Shown one piece after another: positions 16,439-41,047 of a stretch of 45,030 nt of DNA. Where the stretch lies: IMG/VR virus record IMGVR_UViG_2851949629_000008, positions 1 through 45,030 of that record, one strand, 5' to 3'. The DNA is from a virus. Taxonomy: Duplodnaviria; Heunggongvirae; Uroviricota; Caudoviricetes. The translations under genes and the position numbers were made by a program. The notes beneath the pieces were generated by a model. It did not search any database. It saw only the letters and a list, made by a program, of their open reading frames with translations, and was not told the origin of the DNA. How positions within the stretch are numbered: the stretch's first letter is position 1; every line of letters starts with the position of its first letter.

Positions 16439-16756
16439 TTACGCCGTACATTTCACCAGACCGCGGTGATCAACTGGCGCGACACCGGCGTCAATACGCA
16501 CTTTCGTTGTCACGCCATCCACACTGAAGCCCTCCATCTGATCAATATATGGCGTATCCACACCGTTGAGATAAGCCACTTCAATCGTATCGGAGCCTTT
16601 TGACGCAGCCAGGTAGAAGGTGGTCTGGCTGTTATCATCAAGACGAGGCTCTGCAATAACGGTCGCAAAATCTTTCACCGGGTTAATAATACCGGCGTTA
16701 ATGTCAGCCCCCTTGACACTTGAGGAGCGAATGACCTGGTTAGCAACAGACTCCAT
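16439..16756 (-). CDS. Capsid C-terminal segment in -1 frame (probable continuation of the upstream protease/capsid ORF)
   Basis: This frame stays open upstream of its ATG to 16837, overlapping the last 14 codons of the upstream ORF; no convincing RBS of its own. Confidence 0.45.
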   Translation of the reverse strand: MESVANQVIRSSSVKGADINAGIINPVKDFATVIAEPRLDDNSQTTFYLAASKGSDTIEVAYLNGVDTPYIDQMEGFSVDGVTTKVRIDAGVAPVDHRGLVKCTA

Positions 16757-16791
16757 CGCCGTCGGTACCAGTACGAACGCAGGACGAATAT

Positions 16792-18498
16792 TCAGATGAC
16801 GCCCCCCTCTTTCTGAACGCGCATCAACTGGCGGGCTTTATCCAGCGATGCCACGTCCATTGCAGCGCTCTCCAGTACGTTTGCATGTTTCGCTTTATCG
16901 AACAGACTTACATTATCTGTGGAGATTTTCGGGTTAGACGTCAGAATGGCATAAACCAGATCGGCAATAGTGGATTTCGCCGCACGGCCCAGTTTCATCG
17001 GGACATCGGTCAGCATATTCAGATCATCATTGATAATGGCCTGACGGGTGATACTGAACAGCTCGCCATAGGTCGCCAGTGCAATAGTGGCCTGTTTATC
17101 TCCGGTGGTGACGTATTTATATTCCGCCCCTTCACGCACCTGACGCAGAGCACTGAAGCCCCCCATACCCACACGATGGGCAATTTTAAAATCAGACAAC
17201 TGACCTTTCCGGGTCCACTGTTCGTAAGTCTCAGGGGCTTCTTCCCAGCCCTGCAGAATGGCTTTGTTCGCGACATCCAGCAGAATATTACCGAAATCAG
17301 ACGTACTGTGCGTGAACGCTGCCCCGACCATCTGCATCGGGTTATACCCGGAAACCCCAATCCCCCGTTCTGTCAGTGACATTCGGGCATATTCACGCAG
17401 GGTCATCCCGTTATAGACGTTATCCTGTTCACGCTCAGCAAATCCGGCACGCGCCATCAGCGCCTGACGGATCCCGTCCCCCACAAAATTACCGTTTCCA
17501 GCATAAATATGGGCCGGGGTATTTTTATTTGATGGTGAAAATTCCTTACCCATTTCGTTAAGTAATTTCTCACGGGCCTGCTCAAGCGAGCACTCCGGAT
17601 CGGAAAGACAACTGGCCTGCAATGTCTGATAACGCCCGCCAAACATGGCAAACAGATCATTAATACCGTTTACACGCGCTTTTTGCTCTGCCAGTACCTG
17701 CGCACGGATACTGCTTTCATCTGCGGAAGGTGCATTTGTGGTAGTCGCGGTTGTAGCAACTGGAGCCGTAGTCTGATCCTGTGTCTGAGATGCAGTATTT
17801 TTGTTTTCAGGTTCACGCGTTGCACTGTTGCGTGGCGGAATAATCATATTTCGAATGGATTCCGGCATTTTTTTAAATTCCTCTGTACGTTTTGACTGAA
17901 TACATGCCATTGCCTTAACTTCCGGTGTCACCTGGTCAGCAAATCCGTGTGCCAGACATTCGGCACCGGACATCCAGGTTTCATCCGCCAGCATGGCAGC
18001 AATTTCATCGGTGGTTTTCCCGGTTTTCTGCGCATAAGCAGGCAACAGAACCGACTCAACTTTATCAAGCAGGTCGGCATAATCACGCATATCATCCGCA
18101 TCGCCACCACTCACTCCCCATGGTTTATGGATCATCATGAATGCGTTTTCCGGCATGATGACGGGCTCACCCACCATTGCAATGACCGATGCCATGGATG
18201 CCGCGACACCATCCACATAAACAGTAATAGACGCCCCATGATTTTTCAGCGCATTAAAAATGGCGATACCTTCAAAGACATCGCCACCAGGTGAATTGAT
18301 ATGGAGATTAATGTGAGTGATATTACCCAGCGCATTCAGATCGCTAACAAACTGCTTCGCCGTAACTCCCCAGAAACCAATCTCGTCATAGATATAAATA
18401 TCTGCGTCACTTTTATGACCCGCCTTCATCCTGAACCAGGAATTATTCTTCAGACTGGCCTTCGGTTCGCCGCGAAACCACGCGTTCTGTTTCAGCAT
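16792..18498 (-). CDS. Prohead protease (ClpP/S14-like) fused to scaffold/major capsid region
   Basis: HINSPGGDVFEGIAIFNAL is ClpP-like; Ala/Thr-rich linker; capsid-like C-terminal half; strong RBS AAGGAGGTGGTAATG at the MLKQNAW start (18498). Confidence 0.7.
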   Translation of the reverse strand: MLKQNAWFRGEPKASLKNNSWFRMKAGHKSDADIYIYDEIGFWGVTAKQFVSDLNALGNITHINLHINSPGGDVFEGIAIFNALKNHGASITVYVDGVAASMASVIAMVGEPVIMPENAFMMIHKPWGVSGGDADDMRDYADLLDKVESVLLPAYAQKTGKTTDEIAAMLADETWMSGAECLAHGFADQVTPEVKAMACIQSKRTEEFKKMPESIRNMIIPPRNSATREPENKNTASQTQDQTTAPVATTATTTNAPSADESSIRAQVLAEQKARVNGINDLFAMFGGRYQTLQASCLSDPECSLEQAREKLLNEMGKEFSPSNKNTPAHIYAGNGNFVGDGIRQALMARAGFAEREQDNVYNGMTLREYARMSLTERGIGVSGYNPMQMVGAAFTHSTSDFGNILLDVANKAILQGWEEAPETYEQWTRKGQLSDFKIAHRVGMGGFSALRQVREGAEYKYVTTGDKQATIALATYGELFSITRQAIINDDLNMLTDVPMKLGRAAKSTIADLVYAILTSNPKISTDNVSLFDKAKHANVLESAAMDVASLDKARQLMRVQKEGGVI

Positions 18499-26176: not shown

Positions 26177-26251
<75 letters not shown>

Positions 26252-26254
26252 ATA

Positions 26255-26330
<76 letters not shown>

Positions 26331-26332
26331 AC

Positions 26333-26409
26333 TGGACCGCCACCGGGGACTCGAACCTCGCACACTCAACTTAAAGGGTTGACGCTCTTTCCTGATGAGC
26401 CAGTGGCGG
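26333..26409 (-). tRNA. tRNA-like gene, anticodon loop CCUUUAA (UUU, Lys-type; C33 is noncanonical)
   Basis: 77 nt, 7-bp acceptor stem, T-loop TTCGAGT, CCA end; one A-C mismatch in the T-stem. Confidence 0.4.
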
Positions 26410-26410
26410 T

Positions 26411-26486
26411 TGGTGGCCCTTGCTGGATTTGAACCAGCGACCTGGCGATTATGAGTCGCTCGCTCTCACCACTGAGCTAAAGGGCC
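26411..26486 (-). tRNA. tRNA with CAU anticodon (Ile2/ileX-like or Met)
   Basis: GGCCCTTTAGCTCAGTGG...CTCATAA...GGTTCAAATCC resembles E. coli ileX as recalled. Confidence 0.7.
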
Positions 26487-26684: not shown

Positions 26685-26713
26685 AATATATGCCTTTCAA
26701 TCTGCTTTTGCAA
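26685..26713 (-). promoter_or_regulatory. Candidate late promoter (pR'-like) overlapping the 3' end of the Q-like gene
   Basis: Minus strand TTGCAA-17 nt-TATATT; by-eye sigma70 match only. Confidence 0.3.
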
Positions 26714-27386
26714 CACTTTGCTTTGAAAATGCCGCCTTTTGTTTTGAACGTGTTCTCATTACAAACAATAAAGCCTCACTATCCAGTCGGTGAAAAATGT
26801 GTTTCATTGCAACCCAGTGACGAGTAAATGTTTTGGACCAGTTTTTAGTTGTCACTCCCGCCAGTAATGCCAGCTCCTGGTATTCATAACCTTCCCCACC
26901 AAAAAGTTCTGCTTTTACTTCCTGCGCCGCCAGCCAGATTAATTTTTTCAGGCGTTCCTGCGTTTTCCCTGCAATTTTTCTGGTACCGGATTGAGTATTA
27001 AATTCATTCCACGCCCACTGTGTTATCGCGATCTGATATTCCCAACAAATACTCCCGCTGTAACACCACAACAACCAGGCTTTATGATGTTCTTCAAGAG
27101 ACAGAACCGCCCGCCGCCACGATGATGTCGAAAACTCAACCGGACTGACCAGAGGAATTGACGTCCCCTTCGCCAGCGATTGCTTTCCCGGGATTGGTGG
27201 ATTATCCCGCGTTATCATTTTTCCAGTCACTTCATCGCGGTACCGGATTTTTTTACGCCTGTAACGCCCTGTATCAAACATGGCATTCTCCTGCCAGGCC
27301 TCAAGCTGCCCTTTTGTTGATCCACTCAAATCGGCGGTGGCAATCATGAGTTGCTCACGAACAAACTGTAAATACTGGTTATTCAT
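26697..27386 (-). CDS. Putative late antiterminator Q (QuuQ-type family)
   Basis: 229 aa directly upstream of the tRNA cluster and lysis cassette, downstream of rusA; assignment by position and recalled family resemblance. Confidence 0.45.
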   Translation of the reverse strand: MNNQYLQFVREQLMIATADLSGSTKGQLEAWQENAMFDTGRYRRKKIRYRDEVTGKMITRDNPPIPGKQSLAKGTSIPLVSPVEFSTSSWRRAVLSLEEHHKAWLLWCYSGSICWEYQIAITQWAWNEFNTQSGTRKIAGKTQERLKKLIWLAAQEVKAELFGGEGYEYQELALLAGVTTKNWSKTFTRHWVAMKHIFHRLDSEALLFVMRTRSKQKAAFSKQSVAKAD

Positions 27387-29219: not shown

Positions 29220-29477
29220 ATGCGTACAACCCAACAATTCAGCATTACATTAACTAACGAGATGGCTGACATGGTGCGCGCCCGTGTGGCTTCCGGTGCC
29301 TATGCTTCAGAAAGCGAGGTCATTCGTGAAGGGCTTCGCGCACTGAATGAGCGCGATAAAGCAATCGAAGCGTGGTTAACGCATTCAGCCGCCCCCTCTC
29401 TTGATTCTATCCGCGAAAATCCAAACAACGGACGCTCCATTTCACAGGTTCGCGCCGCGATTCGATCCGGGAAGTAA
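29220..29477 (+). CDS. parD: ParD-family (RHH) antitoxin
   Basis: MRTTQQFSITLTNEMADMVRARVASGAYASESEVIREGLRALNER is a ribbon-helix-helix ParD-like signature; SD GAGG upstream. Confidence 0.8.
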   Translation: MRTTQQFSITLTNEMADMVRARVASGAYASESEVIREGLRALNERDKAIEAWLTHSAAPSLDSIRENPNNGRSISQVRAAIRSGK

Positions 29478-29482
29478 TCTGC

Positions 29483-29782
29483 ATGACATTTGAAGTCATC
29501 ATTACCCCCGAGGCCGAACAGCAGATAATAAACCTGCACGGATATATAACGGAGAAAGCAGGAAGCGTCATTGCTGACAATTATGCCAATGCGCTTCTTG
29601 ATTATCTTGATGGGTTTTCTACATTCCCACATCGGGGCAATAAACGCGATGATATTCGCCAGGGAATGCGAGTAACTCACTTCCGCCACAGAACGATTAT
29701 TGCTTTTGCCGTTGATGGCAATAAAGTCTTTATCGCTGGCGTTTACCATGGAGGGCAAAGTTATGAATCTGACTTTTTATAG
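29483..29782 (+). CDS. parE: ParE/RelE-family toxin
   Basis: 99 aa, 5 bp downstream of the antitoxin; ParE-like size and pattern. Confidence 0.75.
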   Translation: MTFEVIITPEAEQQIINLHGYITEKAGSVIADNYANALLDYLDGFSTFPHRGNKRDDIRQGMRVTHFRHRTIIAFAVDGNKVFIAGVYHGGQSYESDFL

Positions 29783-29843: not shown

Positions 29844-30197
29844 ATGAATAAAACAATTTGTTTTCTATTGGTTTTTGCAATTTCAGGATGCGTCAACCCT
29901 TATAACTACAGAGAAGAACAAAATGTTATTATCTCGTTCAAAACAAATTCTCCACCACAAGAAATACAAGAATGCATTCTCAGTGAGTGGCAGCGTACAC
30001 CTCTCTTAGCCACTATCACGTCTCAAAAAATTGGCAAGTATTACAGCGTATTAGCGGTTGCAGATAATGCCGACATTTATAAGTTGGCAGATGGTTCTAC
30101 TATCATTGATTTTTATTCCCTTCGAGGGGTCTTAGACCCCACCAATGGGAAAAGCAAGAGGATTCAGGGAATTAAATCATGTATTAGCACTAAATAA
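29844..30197 (+). CDS. Small lipoprotein, paralog of the 7453-7791 lipoprotein
   Basis: MNKTICFLLVFAISGC lipobox; shares N-terminus, a central E-x-x-C-I-x-x-x-W motif and C-terminal Cys with the other lipoprotein; AT-rich; terminator hairpin at 30271-30300. Confidence 0.6.
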   Translation: MNKTICFLLVFAISGCVNPYNYREEQNVIISFKTNSPPQEIQECILSEWQRTPLLATITSQKIGKYYSVLAVADNADIYKLADGSTIIDFYSLRGVLDPTNGKSKRIQGIKSCISTK

Positions 30198-30457: not shown

Positions 30458-30557
30458 AGCCTGCTTCTCCTTGCCTTTCGGCACGTAAGAGGCTAATCTT
30501 CAGTTGTCGAGACATAAGACTGGCCTCACTTTGTACTGACCCCAAAAAGTTGGACAG

Positions 30558-31409
30558 TTAAACACGAGGCATATAGGTCTGATTCCGATATTCAATTGGA
30601 GTCAGACCTTTTAATTTCAGGCTAATTCTTCTGCTGTTGTAGTATTCAATATATTCCGTAACAGCATCCTTCAGTTCGCTTATATTACTGAACTCATCAA
30701 GATAAAAACACTCCGACTTTAAGGTTCCAAAGAAACACTCCACCACAGCATTATCCAGACAATTGCCTTTTCTGGACATGCTTTGTTTAATACCATGTTC
30801 TTTAAGGATATTTTGATATCTTCTCATACGATACTGCCATCCCTGGTCAGAGTGCAGAACAGGATGCTCGTGAGGATTAAGCTTTTTGAATGCCTGATCG
30901 AGCATATTCTCAACCATGTTCATCACTGGTCTTTCCGAAAGGCTGTAAGAAATAACTTCGTTGTTGAAGAGATCTATTACTGGAGACAAATACAGCTTGC
31001 GCCCATTGACTGCAAATTCAGTAACATCGGTAACCCACTTCTCGTTTGGCCGCGTAGCCTTGAAATCTCTTTGGAGAACATTAGGGGCGGTTTGCCCTAC
31101 CTCTCCTCTGTAAGAGCGGTATCGCTTGACCTTAATCGCTGCTTTAAGTGAGAGGGTTCCCATCAGGCGCTGAACAGCTTTATGGTTAATCTGTTTCCCT
31201 TCTCGATGAAGAGACAGCGTTACCCTACGGTATCCGTATCGGCCTCTATTCTCGTGATAAATCTCACTAATACGCTTTTTAACGTCCGCATACTTGTCAG
31301 GCTTGCTGAGAGCCTTTAGATGATAATAAAACGTACTGCGCGGTATCTCCGCAGCCCTGAGAAGCTCATCAAGAGGATAAAACTGCCTTAGCTCGTTGAG
31401 TACTTTCAC
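30558..31409 (-). CDS. insK: IS150 transposase OrfB (InsK, DDE)
   Basis: 283 aa IS3-family integrase-core ORF. Confidence 0.9.
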
Positions 31410-31927
31410 TTTTTCGTGGGATGAGCTAAGGCTTTCAGCTTTTTTAGATACATAAGCCGCGTTTCAAGAAATCGAACTTGCCTTTCAAGATCCTCAATGC
31501 GTCGGTCTTTTGACAGCTCCAATGCTGATGCCGCTTTTTCTGGATCAACTGATATTGCAATGTTTCTTTTGGTGCCAATCTTGAGCGCGCGTAAACCAGC
31601 TTCTCCGCGCTCTTCATAGACCTTCAGCCACCTGGCTACAGAACCACTACCAGCAAGCATAAAGTGAGCAGCAGCCTGATTAAGGGACATGTGCTGCTCG
31701 ATCACAGCTTTCACGACCTTAATACGCAACTCTGGATCAGCACTAACGCCTTTAGGTTTGGGAATTAAACCTTTTTCTCCATGTTTTTCATAGAGGGCAA
31801 CCCATGTCCTGACCTGGGTTCGGGGGACACCAAAACGTGCCGAGATGATCCTGTAACCATCATCAGTTGTGAAGTAGTGATTCACGACTTCAAGGCGCTT
31901 TTCAAAAGGGTATTTTGGCTTTGACAT
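31406..31927 (-). CDS. insJ: IS150 OrfA (InsJ, HTH)
   Basis: 173 aa; overlaps orfB. Confidence 0.9.
   Translation of the reverse strand: MSKPKYPFEKRLEVVNHYFTTDDGYRIISARFGVPRTQVRTWVALYEKHGEKGLIPKPKGVSADPELRIKVVKAVIEQHMSLNQAAAHFMLAGSGSVARWLKVYEERGEAGLRALKIGTKRNIAISVDPEKAASALELSKDRRIEDLERQVRFLETRLMYLKKLKALAHPTKK
31422..31428 (-). promoter_or_regulatory. IS150 -1 programmed frameshift heptamer AAAAAAG
   Basis: Minus-strand A AAA AAG at the orfA/orfB overlap, as expected for IS3-family transframe transposase. Confidence 0.6.
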
Positions 31928-32236
31928 ATTAGGGGCTATTCCATTTCATCGTCCAACAAAATGGGTGCAGTACACTTCGATTTATAGTCGGGTGGGGCTT
32001 TTCTCTATCTGCCTTTTGGTGTTCATGCCTGAGACAGATAGCCTCAAGCACCCGCAGCAATTCTACTTATGACGCAATTTAATGACAACAACTCTACAGC
32101 GGTAGTGTGTTTAACTATTGACATTGATTAACTCATTATTCAAAATTTTTGCGTACGCATTAATGATTTTGTGTCGTTGTTGTGATGGTAAAAAAATCAC
32201 AAACGATCTAACAATAACATAGGTGATATTTTCAAT

Positions 32237-33377
32237 ATGGAAATTAAGCAAGTTATCGTTCATGAACTAATTAAAGAAGCAAAAAAGGATTTTGATTTTT
32301 CTAAGCCGTATCAGCTTAGATCCACTCCTCTCGATAAAACCAATCCAATTGTTATAAAACTTATTCAAGACATTTCATCTTTATATGGAACCAAAGGCAA
32401 TTCTGCACATTATGGCGTTTTTAAAGAGGAGAAAACAGAACAAGGGCCTGTGCCATCAATATTTGAAGAGTATTCTCAGTCAGAGGATAACATTAATGAA
32501 AAGTTTGTGCCTTTTTCTATTGAAGTGATGAAGCAACTTGTAAAAAAAGCCAAAGAAGAACCTTGGTCATCTGGTGGTTTTATTGTGTTTTGTGACTATA
32601 TTGTAAATAACAATAAATTCTTTTTAATTGCAATGATTAAAAAGAAAAATGGTGTTACTATCAGCAACAAACTCGAACCTGAAGAAATGATCCATTTGGA
32701 TCTATCCAAAATACACCAAGCAGCAAGAATAAATTTCAATCTCTACCAACAATATAAAACTGCTGATGAGTCTGAAAAAATTGACTTAAGTTATCTAAGT
32801 TTCGTAAGTAAAGGAGTGGGTCAATCCACATCAGCATATTTTATTGCAGCAATAGGATGCGACAAATCACTTGCAGCAGCAAAAGCCACAAAAACTACCA
32901 ACTGTCGCAAAACAATTTTTTAACCAAAAACCAGAACTTAAAGCATGTGCCAATAGATTTAAACATGACGTTATTGCATATTTAGACACACAAGCAGCTA
33001 AAAATTTGTCAGCCCGATTGAGTGATATTGAAGTAATTGCAGCACGTCACATGACAAATTTAGATGAGTCTACCAAAGAATCTTACACTCACGAATTAAT
33101 TCTTTTTTTAAATAGTGAAAATGTGAGAATCCCAACTGAATTTGTTATCAGTAAACGGGCGTTGAAAGACATTAAAAACATCACCTTTAAGACTGATGAG
33201 ATTGGATTTAATTTTGACAAGTCTCTCCTTGGAGTGACAGCTGATGATGATGTGTGGTACGATGAAACAACTGGAAGATTATCATTTACAAACTTACCAG
33301 CTGAATTTAAGGCTAAACTAAGCGCTGTGGTAAAAGAAAATTTAAAAATAAGGGATAGTGGAAAAGAAAATGGCTAA
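32237..33377 (+). CDS. NdpA/YejK-like (NA37 family) nucleoid-associated protein homolog, interrupted by an apparent +1 frameshift near 32889-32893
   Basis: N-terminus MEIKQVIVHELIK and GGFIVFCDYIV align with E. coli YejK as recalled (INQIALHQLIK, GGFVLFCHYRY); track splits it into 32237-32923 and 32871-33377 (the latter with a TTG start); AT-rich. Confidence 0.55.
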
Positions 33378-34590
33378 TTTATCAACGGTTGTAGATTTTT
33401 ATAGAGCATCATCGAAGCCCCAATTCGACGGACGTTCTTTTTCTGCAACTGTTGAAATAAATAATAACAATCAACGTTTGGTAAACTTGTTAGTAAATTC
33501 ACATAAAGCCTACGGTTATTTTGAAGATGTTGATATTAATAATGAGTTCATTGACGAAGACGATTTAAAATCACACCCAATTAAAATTGGAGATAAATTC
33601 TCATACACTTACATATCCCCTAAAAATGGAGCAGAACGTTTCTATAACTCAATTCAAGAGTTCCTTTGTATAAACTCACTCAAGAAAGGTGTAATTCCTA
33701 AAGAGTATTACATAATCGATGAGGATTTTCATCCGTCTGATTCAAGTAAACCGGACGAAATTATAAAAATCGAGAAAATTTGTGCAATTATTTCTTCCCT
33801 GGCTGAGATTGCGCACTTTCACGATACAAAATCGGAATCTTCAAATTATCGTTTAGTTTTCGTGAAAGATTCTGACGCAAAATCAACATCTATTATTTTA
33901 GAAACGTGCATTACACCTAAGATGCTCAATATAAATGACATTGATGATGCTATCATCAAGAGTCTTTTAGATGTAAAAAACGCCCAAATCCCCCATCAAG
34001 CAGAAAAAACAGGTATTTTCAGGAATACCATAGTGGAGTTTATTCTCGATAACAAATATGATTTTGAAAACCTAATTTGCCATTGGGATAAATTTGTAAA
34101 GCTATTTGAAAATAATTTATCCACGTATATGAGTGGTTTTTCATTCCATAAGGCACGAAAAGAAATTGCGAAGTCTGAAGCAGAGTTTGCTGAAAAAATC
34201 TCAAAACTTATTACTGATTTGACGACAAAAGTATTATCAATCCCTGTGTCTTTACTGGCATCCTTCGGGATTATAAAACTAACATCAAGATCTGAAATGT
34301 TACTCGTTTTATTAGGTGTATTGTTAAGCTCACTTATTTTATATATGGTATTACTCAATCAGGATAAACAATTAAAACATATTTATCATGCTAAAGATAT
34401 AGCATTTATGCCTTTTCTAAAAAACAATGAAAATTATCCAGAAGACCTTAAGAAGGACATTAATGAGGCTCTATATGAACTATCAAAGAGCCAAACCAAA
34501 TGTGATAATACAATAAAGTTATTTATGTATTTGGCTTGGCTACCAAGTTCTATTGCAGCAGGAATATTTCTTGTGAAGATTTTTATTTAG
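33358..34590 (+). CDS. Large AT-rich protein with two C-terminal transmembrane helices (candidate membrane effector)
   Basis: 410 aa, no recognised domain; hydrophobic segments LLVLLGVLLSSLILYMVLL and LFMYLAWLPSSIAAGIFLVKIFI; overlaps upstream gene by ~20 bp. Confidence 0.5.
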   Translation: MEKKMANLSTVVDFYRASSKPQFDGRSFSATVEINNNNQRLVNLLVNSHKAYGYFEDVDINNEFIDEDDLKSHPIKIGDKFSYTYISPKNGAERFYNSIQEFLCINSLKKGVIPKEYYIIDEDFHPSDSSKPDEIIKIEKICAIISSLAEIAHFHDTKSESSNYRLVFVKDSDAKSTSIILETCITPKMLNINDIDDAIIKSLLDVKNAQIPHQAEKTGIFRNTIVEFILDNKYDFENLICHWDKFVKLFENNLSTYMSGFSFHKARKEIAKSEAEFAEKISKLITDLTTKVLSIPVSLLASFGIIKLTSRSEMLLVLLGVLLSSLILYMVLLNQDKQLKHIYHAKDIAFMPFLKNNENYPEDLKKDINEALYELSKSQTKCDNTIKLFMYLAWLPSSIAAGIFLVKIFI

Positions 34591-34599
34591 CTCTAACAG

Positions 34600-35127
34600 T
34601 TAGAGCATTAATACTCCCTCCAATACTCCCATCGCTGCTTGTATTTTTTTTCTAATAGTCCCATCCGCACATTTCTTTCTTTTTGCGATCTTTCTCAAAG
34701 AAACGCCTATTACAAAGTGGGCAACAATTAACTCATATTCATCTATTTTATATTGTCTGAGTCTCAATATCCACTCATCAATCACTCGCCCTTCATCATC
34801 GCTGCTCTGGCGACGCAATTTTTTACCATGAGGCACAACATCTTTATATTTATCAGCCACTTGCTGCCAGTTGATAGAACTATTTCCAGCTACAGCCCAA
34901 GCTCCCCAACAGTCCAAAATATCATATATATTAGCATTGCTATCTACCTGTTTTTTATATTCTTTTTTGAAGCGAGCAAGAAGCATCCTGGCCATCGTTA
35001 TTATTTCTATACTTGTAACTGATTCATAAGCATCAGGAGAAATAATCCTCCCATCACTTAATGCCCTTTCACTAAGATTTGCTATTTCCAATAATCGTTC
35101 TTTAGTTATTTCCATTATTATCTCCAC
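34600..35127 (-). CDS. Antiterminator Q-like protein (QuuD/phage-82 type)
   Basis: LDCWGAWAV...NWQQVA and LIVAHFVIGVSLRKIAKRKKCADGTIRKKIQAAMGVLEG resemble DLP12 QuuD as recalled. Confidence 0.6.
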   Translation of the reverse strand: MEIIMEITKERLLEIANLSERALSDGRIISPDAYESVTSIEIITMARMLLARFKKEYKKQVDSNANIYDILDCWGAWAVAGNSSINWQQVADKYKDVVPHGKKLRRQSSDDEGRVIDEWILRLRQYKIDEYELIVAHFVIGVSLRKIAKRKKCADGTIRKKIQAAMGVLEGVLML

Positions 35128-40151: not shown

Positions 40152-40500
40152 GGGTCAGGTGGAGTGCGTGCGCCGGACACGGGTGAACATCCGGCACTGA
40201 CAGTTTACTGAAAGGATATGTCCCTGAAAAGTCAGGGCATAACGCGAAAGCGCACGGCGAAATTGGTCTCTCTGTACGGTGTCGTTAAATTTAGTTCGAC
40301 CGTGCGCTTCCGGTTGTGGCAATCCGCGAAATGGCGCGGCGGTAAGTATGGCGGGGTTATTCCTTCCCCGTTGAGGACACCGGGTTGTCAGGTTGACCAT
40401 ACGCTTAAGTGACAACCCCGCTGCAACGCCCTCTGTTATCAATTTTCTGGTGACGTTTGGCGGTATCAGTTTTACTCCGTGACTGCTCTGCCGCCGTTTT
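40152..40500 (+). ncRNA. Candidate structured noncoding RNA region (GC-rich, multiple hairpins)
   Basis: Stems CCCTGA/TCAGGG, CCGCG/CGCGG, GGGTTGTCA/TGACAACCC, GGCGG/CCGCC followed by GTTTTTAAAG; ORFs here are Arg-rich and implausible; strand is uncertain. Confidence 0.3.
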
Positions 40501-40670: not shown

Positions 40671-40859
40671 ATGAAAACGTTATTACCAAACGTTAATACG
40701 TCTGAAGGTTGTTTTGAAATTGGTGTCACTATCAGTAACCCAGTATTTACTGAAGATGCCATTAACAAGAGAAAACAAGAACGGGAGCTATTAAATAAAA
40801 TATGCATTGTTTCAATGCTGGCTCGTTTACGTCTGATGCCAAAAGGATGTGGACAATGA
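40671..40859 (+). CDS. Hypothetical small protein (62 aa)
   Basis: SD GAGGA 7 nt upstream of the ATG; ATGA-coupled to the next ORF. Confidence 0.4.
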   Translation: MKTLLPNVNTSEGCFEIGVTISNPVFTEDAINKRKQERELLNKICIVSMLARLRLMPKGCGQ

Positions 40860-41047
40860 ATTCAGCATTTGCGCTTGTTCTGACAGTTTTTCTTGTTTCC
40901 GGAGAGCCAGTTGATATTGCAGTCAGTGTTCACAGGACAATGCAGGAGTGTATGACTGCAGCAACCGAACAGAAAATTCCCGGTAACTGTTACCCGGTCG
41001 ATAAAGTTATTCACCAGGATAATATCGAAATCCCGGCAGGTCTTTAA
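40855..41047 (+). CDS. Small Cys-containing protein with N-terminal signal-like segment (63 aa)
   Basis: MNSAFALVLTVFLVSG...; translationally coupled to the upstream ORF. Confidence 0.4.

Follow-up and report, generated by a model that had tools for sequence, protein, structure and literature searches.

The 45,030-nucleotide stretch of DNA analysed here (the window) represents an almost complete lambdoid (Qin/Rac-like) prophage of Escherichia coli strain 214-4 (NZ_CP025840.1), ordered from the tail fibres on the left to the integrase on the right. It carries a cassette of two overlapping genes, A and B (32237-34590), on the plus strand, whereas the surrounding phage early and late genes lie on the minus strand. 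We propose that this cassette is, with good probability, a prophage-borne anti-phage system of the class that joins a nucleoid-associated protein (NAP) as sensor to a membrane effector, similar to DS-1 and type II PANGU; that it belongs to a divergent subfamily of this class; and that it has been inactivated by a frameshift in 214-4. A reading of this DNA that preceded our analysis (the original prediction) had described an AT-rich cassette of two overlapping plus-strand genes, flanked by a Q gene and IS150, and had guessed at an undescribed defence or abortive-infection module. The layout and flanks are as it described (Table 1), and the GC content of the cassette is 0.325 against 0.507 for the remainder of the window, the minimum among all 2354-nt windows. 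The defence guess is favoured by the homology of B to DS-1B and by the type II PANGU architecture, but this copy, in which A is a pseudogene, is probably not an active system. "Undescribed" no longer applies, as DS-1 from DefensePredictor, the PANGU preprint and NCBIfam models already describe the class, which the pair matches at class level only. What is new here is a divergent subfamily, for the most part unannotated, that keeps a conserved place beside Q in prophages; the class itself is already described and validated.

In 214-4 gene A is split into two open reading frames (ORFs), both of which match Pfam NA37 (PF04245): ORF 32237-32923 with E 3.3e-36 (125.7 bits, profile positions 1-200) and ORF 32871-33377 with E 4.2e-11 (43.3 bits, profile positions 195-324). 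Both fragments score above the gathering score of 24.6 and jointly span positions 1-324 of the 325 in the profile. The cassette is present in 4 of 5426 complete E. coli genomes, namely 214-4 and three others; all three others have the intact pair (380 and 406 amino acids, aa), with A as a single 380-aa ORF. This intact A matches PHROG 3767 (E 6e-73), and its AlphaFold model (predicted local distance difference test score, pLDDT, 85.1) has a sole significant match in the PDB, the E. coli YejK structure 9be2 (Foldseek E 5.8e-16, probability 1.00). The Pfam matches in two frames and this fold match confirm the earlier assignment of the first gene as an NA37 (YejK/NdpA) homolog. Chromosomal YejK/NdpA (PDB 9be2) has the same fold and Pfam family as A; unlike it, A is ~45 residues longer, AT-rich, horizontally mobile and always paired with B. 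Against the housekeeping YejK equivalog NF001557, A scores 138.3 bits, below the cut-off of 341. These comparisons indicate that A is a paralogous mobile NAP and not the chromosomal yejK orthologue, and it is the presumed sensor of the pair. KwaB (Kiwa) appeared three times in the non-significant Foldseek tail of A and was dropped, as a search of PDB sequences with the A-family profile returned no KwaB and PADLOC gave no Kiwa match.

The cause of the split is a 2-bp deletion in a poly-A run. The window's exact B variant is found in four further independent assemblies (two NCBI drafts and two Logan assemblies of Illumina runs), and all four carry the five-A allele; the frameshift is therefore real and not an assembly error. 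Long-read homopolymer error is ruled out as its source, since the Illumina-based assemblies carry the same allele. The one of these four assemblies whose contig reaches hok has no IS150 there, thus the deletion in A is inherited and older than the IS150 insertion. Programmed frameshifting or transcriptional slippage on the A-run appears implausible for five A with a +1 requirement. The truncated A in 214-4 keeps ~218 native residues and has lost the whole C-terminal domain of the YejK fold. The overlap of the two genes is consistent with translational coupling of B to A; in 214-4, with A truncated, ribosomes stopping ~450 nt before the B start and the coupling lost, the system is most likely non-functional, and B most likely persists as a harmless remnant.

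Gene B, the presumed effector, starts better at ATG 33370 (406 aa) than at GTG 33358 (410 aa), with which PGAP and all homologues concur. The length of 410 aa given earlier is corrected accordingly, whereas the two C-terminal transmembrane helices proposed with it are roughly recovered, as hydrophobic blocks at residues ~284-331 (a strong helix at 306-332, possibly a hairpin of two) and 384-406. The N-terminal part of B (residues 1-283) has a net charge of -10, and in 47 B homologues the region before the first hydrophobic segment is acidic throughout, with a median net charge of -12 and an isoelectric point of 5.05. The model of B (pLDDT 86.3) shows an alpha/beta N-terminal region (~1-180), then helices, and then very long helices that hold the hydrophobic segments. 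B was previously thought to be without a recognisable domain. It has no Pfam match, but a B family does exist: B matches PHROG 5023 (E 4.9e-70), labelled "unknown function", and gives a match below cut-off to NF053869. Searches of A, B and Q in PADLOC-DB v2.0.0 (2023), which is older than the DS-1 and PANGU publications, gave no match; with PADLOC v2, 26 of 27 B-family members had none, and the remaining one had a marginal match (E 0.0024). The B profile found nothing credible among PDB sequences. Helical-bundle, CorA and ClyA-family (ClyA, MakA, AhlB, AhlC) entries in the non-significant tail of the fold search with B are non-specific and serve as leads only.

The pair is not peculiar to this prophage. 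In one-genome-per-species contigs, the B profile finds 23 loci in Xenorhabdus, Proteus, Shigella, Pectobacterium, Providencia, Ewingella, Pantoea, Pseudomonas (nine loci) and Vibrio. The profile-search loci, exact-protein look-ups and one isolated phage together make up 31 related loci (Enterobacterales, Pseudomonas, Vibrio). In 31 of 31, B is immediately preceded on its own strand by an NA37 gene, which answers the proposed check for co-occurrence elsewhere, and in all of them the two genes overlap or are separated by at most ~35 nt. Among the 26 intact pairs, the distances of A and B are correlated with r = 0.946, and 0 of 2000 Mantel permutations reach a value as high; B evolves somewhat faster than A. 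A and B are thus inherited and diverge as a unit; co-divergence alone is no proof of a physical interaction between them, since the genes are adjacent. An exhaustive search with the B profile returned 1046 representatives (at 50% identity) at E <= 1e-3, including 209 at E <= 1e-30, nearly all of ~400-430 aa, and these ~1000 representatives are nearly all annotated as "hypothetical protein". The pair has decayed in five of the 31 related loci (Shigella, two Pseudomonas, a Pantoea insect symbiont and Serratia marcescens), to which the window is additional. At the Serratia marcescens locus, as in the window, the NA37 gene alone is broken and B is intact; this may reflect a recurrent loss of the sensor gene, possibly from its cost. 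An intact A-B pair whose B has 31% identity to that of the window was also seen on a 329-kb contig of a metagenome-assembled genome labelled Candidatus Moraniibacteriota (candidate phyla radiation), while all other hosts are Gammaproteobacteria; this contig may be mis-binned or may reflect a long-range transfer.

The positions of the pair are typical cargo or defence sites. Prophages of E. coli, Yersinia and Pantoea, as well as Klebsiella phage P7641, carry it on the opposite strand in the interval from Q to the holin/lysis genes; the Salmonella locus has it in the same Q-lysis region, along with RelBE and HicAB modules. P4-like elements with an integrase, AlpA and a primase-DUF927 protein carry the pair in Dickeya, Serratia and P. 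brassicacearum, and its neighbours in Vibrio are an MmeI-type restriction-modification gene, a helicase and a T5orf172 protein. Known defence or toxin-antitoxin genes are thus found near the pair in the window (ParDE and hok/sok), in Vibrio (MmeI-type restriction-modification) and in Salmonella (RelBE/HicAB), and most other loci have phage genes only.

A link to a validated system comes from DefensePredictor (bioRxiv January 2025; Science 2026, PMC13092281), which lists a "YejK nucleoid-associated domain" among the domains newly validated in defence. Its supplement (PMC13092281) gives DS-1 (D390) as WP_000355468.1 (NA37, 391 aa) plus WP_000150292.1 (404 aa), experimentally validated; cloned alone in E. 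coli, DS-1 protects against phage (PMC13092281). DS-1 and the window pair are both two-gene E. coli operons in which the gene of the NA37 protein precedes that of a ~400-aa partner. The two partners are homologues of each other: B matches DS-1B (WP_000150292.1) by BLASTP with 27% identity over 162 aa (E 1e-14) and by hhalign with a probability of 97.3% (E 2.7e-11, 275 columns), and DS-1B matches the hidden Markov model (HMM) of the window's B family with 60.6 bits (E 1.5e-11 at a search space of 1.8e9). DS-1B and B also share an acidic N-terminal part (net charge -9 and -10, respectively) and a hydrophobic "IP..L.A..G" helix after a long helical region. In NCBIfam release 20, B matches NF053869 "DS1_2_antiphage" with E 4.2e-30 and 105.1 bits (equivalog cut-off 315), and A matches NF053868 "DS1_1_antiphage" with E 1.4e-28 and 99.9 bits (equivalog cut-off 330). 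With a partner homologous to DS-1B and an NA37 gene immediately upstream, the pair can be placed by sequence in the DS-1 superfamily. Two E. coli genes of matching lengths that DefensePredictor predicts to act in defence, WP_016159279.1 and WP_120130707.1, were not found in the cluster member lists.

The second line of comparison is PANGU, described in a preprint of April 2026 (bioRxiv 10.64898/2026.04.06.716658) as operons of a YejK-like NAP and an effector. In type II PANGU, the NAP Pag2A is joined to Pag2B, which has a C-terminal transmembrane domain and an N-terminal acidic DNA-mimic domain that binds the NAP at nanomolar affinity (10.64898/2026.04.06.716658). Type II PANGU-Ecu needs both of its genes, each of which is non-toxic on its own, and it protects against T4 in an abortive-infection-like manner; the PANGU NAP exits the nucleoid once T4 endonuclease II breaks down the host DNA (10.64898/2026.04.06.716658). 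Type II PANGU was delimited by a NAP of at least 300 aa with HMM E < 1e-10, a bicistronic arrangement on one strand with the genes < 40 bp apart, and defence genes within 10 kb. The intact 380-aa allele of A has this length, whereas the window's split copy (228 + 168 codons) would fall short of it; the window's genes are bicistronic with an 8-nt overlap; and B has the acidic N-terminus and the C-terminal hydrophobic helices, for which DNA mimicry may be supposed by analogy. Overall, both have a YejK-like NAP followed by a partner with an acidic N-terminal part and a transmembrane C-terminal part, one tested PANGU example is from E. coli, and the class is mobile and widespread. The PANGU operons were chosen by linkage to defence islands, whereas the window's subfamily is mainly a prophage moron beside Q. 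Type I PANGU (Pag1A plus the GRel toxSAS Pag1B) has the same sort of NAP sensor, which binds an acidic DNA-mimic domain of the effector; however, Pag1B, an alarmone synthetase, is soluble instead of membrane-bound and has no similarity to B.

Among prophage systems, RexA/RexB of phage lambda likewise brings about abortive infection with two genes; the lysogen expresses a sensor in the cytoplasm together with an effector in the inner membrane. RexA/RexB differs from A/B in that there is no homology (A and B have no Pfam match other than NA37 and nothing in PADLOC), and its reported trigger and folds are different.

Several points weigh against assigning the cassette to this class of defence systems. 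Phage protection has been demonstrated for DS-1, whereas for the window's subfamily we infer anti-phage activity by analogy with the published class. A and B score far below the DS-1 equivalog cut-offs, and the pair, judged by these scores, is not a DS-1 equivalog. The similarity of B to DS-1B is ~27% and lies mainly in the C-terminal two-thirds (160-275 residues). A is no nearer to DS-1A than to housekeeping YejK (138 bits for YejK and 100 bits for DS1_1), and the window's A is without the N-terminal zinc ribbon of DS-1A. The likeness to type II PANGU is one of architecture and not of sequence comparison with Pag2A/Pag2B. The PANGU mechanism comes from a preprint, which states that the activation of Pag2B by Pag2A is unresolved (10.64898/2026.04.06.716658). 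The model of B has no significant match among solved structures that would specify an action on the membrane. Finally, decayed copies are frequent (6 of 32 loci including the window), so that the pair could often be dispensable or costly.

By analogy with the published systems, we propose the following mechanism for the intact pair. A, with its YejK fold, would sit on the host nucleoid until degradation of the host DNA by an infecting phage set it free, and the freed A would bind the acidic, putatively DNA-mimicking N-terminal part of B. B would then act on the inner membrane through its C-terminal hydrophobic helices, compromising the membrane or otherwise arresting the cell. The infected cell would thus cease to support phage growth, which would amount to abortive infection.

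A recurrent neighbour of the pair is a gene of the short-Q family of antiterminators. In 14 of the 31 loci, all of them in Enterobacterales, a convergent short Q is found at most 65 nt from the stop codon of B, usually with overlapping stop codons. The cassette-side Q of the window shares 49-57% identity with the pair-flanking Qs of four other phages or prophages from different genera, against only 22% with the second Q of the window. The terminator scan found no canonical intrinsic terminator between B and the convergent Q. The cassette-side Q is best described as a conserved neighbour of the pair in enterobacterial prophages. The adjacency may mark a mere favoured insertion site that recombines along with Q, or it may reflect an antisense coupling of the defence operon to the lytic regulator. 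A more specific form of the proposed defence function can be built on the latter, namely that the Q-linked enterobacterial subfamily is a type whose defence is wired to the prophage lytic switch by antisense, with B as a latent ClyA-type alpha-helical pore former released by NAP binding; we hold this combination to be unlikely. Under it, A-B transcripts of the lysogen would extend antisense into Q, and those of the delayed-early or late phage stage would read antisense through B-A. Such wiring, if true, would keep the abortive-infection module silent during degradation or remodelling of the host DNA by the resident prophage itself, and would be a built-in self-immunity.

We consider three other explanations of the cassette. 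First, it may be an accessory chromatin module of the prophage, in which the NAP shapes or silences prophage or host DNA, as the NdpA-like Pnd of plasmid pCAR1 may do, and the membrane partner tethers or sequesters it, possibly tuning Q and the lysis-lysogeny choice. NAP genes by which mobile elements integrate themselves into host regulation are known (reviews PMC6606824, PMC10561277), and the tail-to-tail arrangement with a specific Q, with overlapping stops and no terminator in between, invites a regulatory link. However, B is homologous to the partner in DS-1, which protects when cloned on its own; the pair also occurs without Q and outside prophages (Pseudomonas, Vibrio, P4-like elements); and an acidic N-domain with a hydrophobic C-terminus fits the sensor/effector scheme of type II PANGU. 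A chromatin role is thus quite improbable.

Second, the cassette could still be active in 214-4, either because the 218-residue fragment of A suffices, or by low-frequency restoration of the frame on the A-run, or through exclusion by B alone. Indeed, B is intact in all five assemblies with the five-A allele (the window included), this allele predates IS150 and has persisted long enough to spread, and the upstream region with its promoter-like site is intact. That stretch is identical in the intact E. coli loci without IS150 and is not disrupted by IS150; in the promoter and terminator scan, however, site counts in the region are not above the shuffled expectation, which leaves it as a candidate promoter only. 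Against an active cassette, the experimentally studied type II PANGU-Ecu depends on both of its genes, and a complete domain of the YejK fold is gone from A. Restoring the frame would need +1 or -2 on five A, which is not a known slippery context, and termination so far upstream of B abolishes the coupling through the overlap. The B of the window differs by one amino acid from the B of the intact E. coli loci, and its intactness may just reflect a recent event. We give continued activity in this strain little chance and return to a probable defence system that has most likely been lost here.

Third, it is scarcely credible that the cassette stabilises the prophage as a toxin-antitoxin or addiction module, A holding in check a membrane-acting toxin B: the two small overlapping genes with a membrane-active candidate and the nearby toxin-antitoxin loci (ParDE and hokD/sok in the window, RelBE and HicAB in Salmonella) invite it, but an intact B beside a broken A, seen in Serratia and in five or more E. 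coli assemblies, fits an effector that is non-toxic alone, where a lethal toxin freed of its antitoxin would not be tolerated, no PANGU single-gene construct was toxic (10.64898/2026.04.06.716658), and no toxin-antitoxin family matches A or B.

If the cassette is a defence system, the class of NAP sensor plus membrane effector extends to a large, poorly annotated family, whose main locations in Enterobacterales are P4-like satellites and the Q-lysis cargo site of lambdoid prophages. This speaks for annotating with superfamily-level models beside the narrow DS-1 equivalogs. The intact E. coli alleles WP_001460784 and WP_001460783 are ready test cases for whether YejK-like sensing of genome integrity generalises and for how the membrane partner kills or arrests the cell. 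The message of the window's own copy is modest, as it is a pseudogene within a probably defective prophage.

Table 1. Features of the cassette and its surroundings in the window.
Feature	Position	Strand	Basis or remark
Gene A, N-terminal fragment, 228 codons (last ~10 out of frame)	32237..32923	+	Pfam NA37; PGAP "nucleoid-associated protein, frameshifted"
Gene A, C-terminal part, 168 codons, +1 frame relative to N-terminal fragment	32871..33377	+	Pfam NA37
Frameshift site, A5 where intact alleles have A7	32890..32894	+	Alignment with 3 intact E. coli genomes
Gene B, 406 aa, presumed effector	33370..34590	+	ATG start; overlaps end of gene A by 8 nt
Promoter-like site TTGACA-17 nt-CAAAAT, candidate	32118..32146	+	10/12 hexamer matches; ~90 nt upstream of gene A
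Short-Q-family antiterminator gene	34600..35115	-	Pfam Phage_antitermQ E 4.6e-30; tail-to-tail with B, 9 nt from stop of B
Inverted repeat GCTCTAA/CAG/TTAGAGC, 7-bp stem	34590..34606		Spans stop of B (TAG, 34588-34590) and stop of Q (34600-34602)
N-terminal extension of cassette-side Q, ~56 codons	34948-35115	-	PHROG 3323 (unknown function)
Second Q gene	26697-27386	-	Precedes lysis genes
IS150	~30532-31972		Inserted in hokD/sok locus (31898-32053, -), 265 bp upstream of gene A
ParD/ParE pair	29220-29782	+	Cargo region
117-aa protein, lipoprotein-like N-terminus	29844-30197	+	PHROG 914 (unknown function)
Four tRNA genes (Gly, Thr, Lys, Ile)	26177-26486	-	Between second Q and holin
Prohead protease/major capsid fusion gene	16439-18498	-	Frameshifted per PGAP
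DicF antisense RNA	40445-40496	+	
dicB and ydfD	40671-41047	+	
Rfam IS009 match, 129 bits	41-244	-	Extreme left end

Further observations concern the Q genes of the window. The N-terminal extension of the cassette-side Q is missing from the 115-122-aa Qs that flank the pair elsewhere, and it matches a PHROG of its own; it may be a gene fusion. The window has two Q genes and, downstream of the cassette, an apparent second nin-type region (hokD, DUF968, RusA, Q, tRNAs); the same layout is found in the three intact E. coli loci. This two-Q layout points to a mosaic, in which a segment of Q plus A-B recombined upstream of another Q-lysis module. At the position of the four tRNA genes of the window, the intact E. 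coli loci have Arg, Arg and Ile.

The cargo region on the other side of the cassette has features of its own. IS150 sits between the hok coding region and the regulatory sequence upstream of it. The Rfam "sok" match (82.6 bits) crosses the IS150/hok junction, which suggests that the Rfam model may contain IS150-end sequence. The ParD/ParE pair and the 117-aa protein are both absent from the other three cassette-carrying E. coli loci.

As for the prophage as a whole, several tail-fibre genes at the left end are partial, in addition to the frameshifted fusion gene of prohead protease and major capsid protein, and the prophage is probably defective. DicF, dicB and ydfD indicate that the immunity-side region is Qin-like. 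At the opposite end, the IS009 match lies amid fragments of tail-fibre assembly genes.

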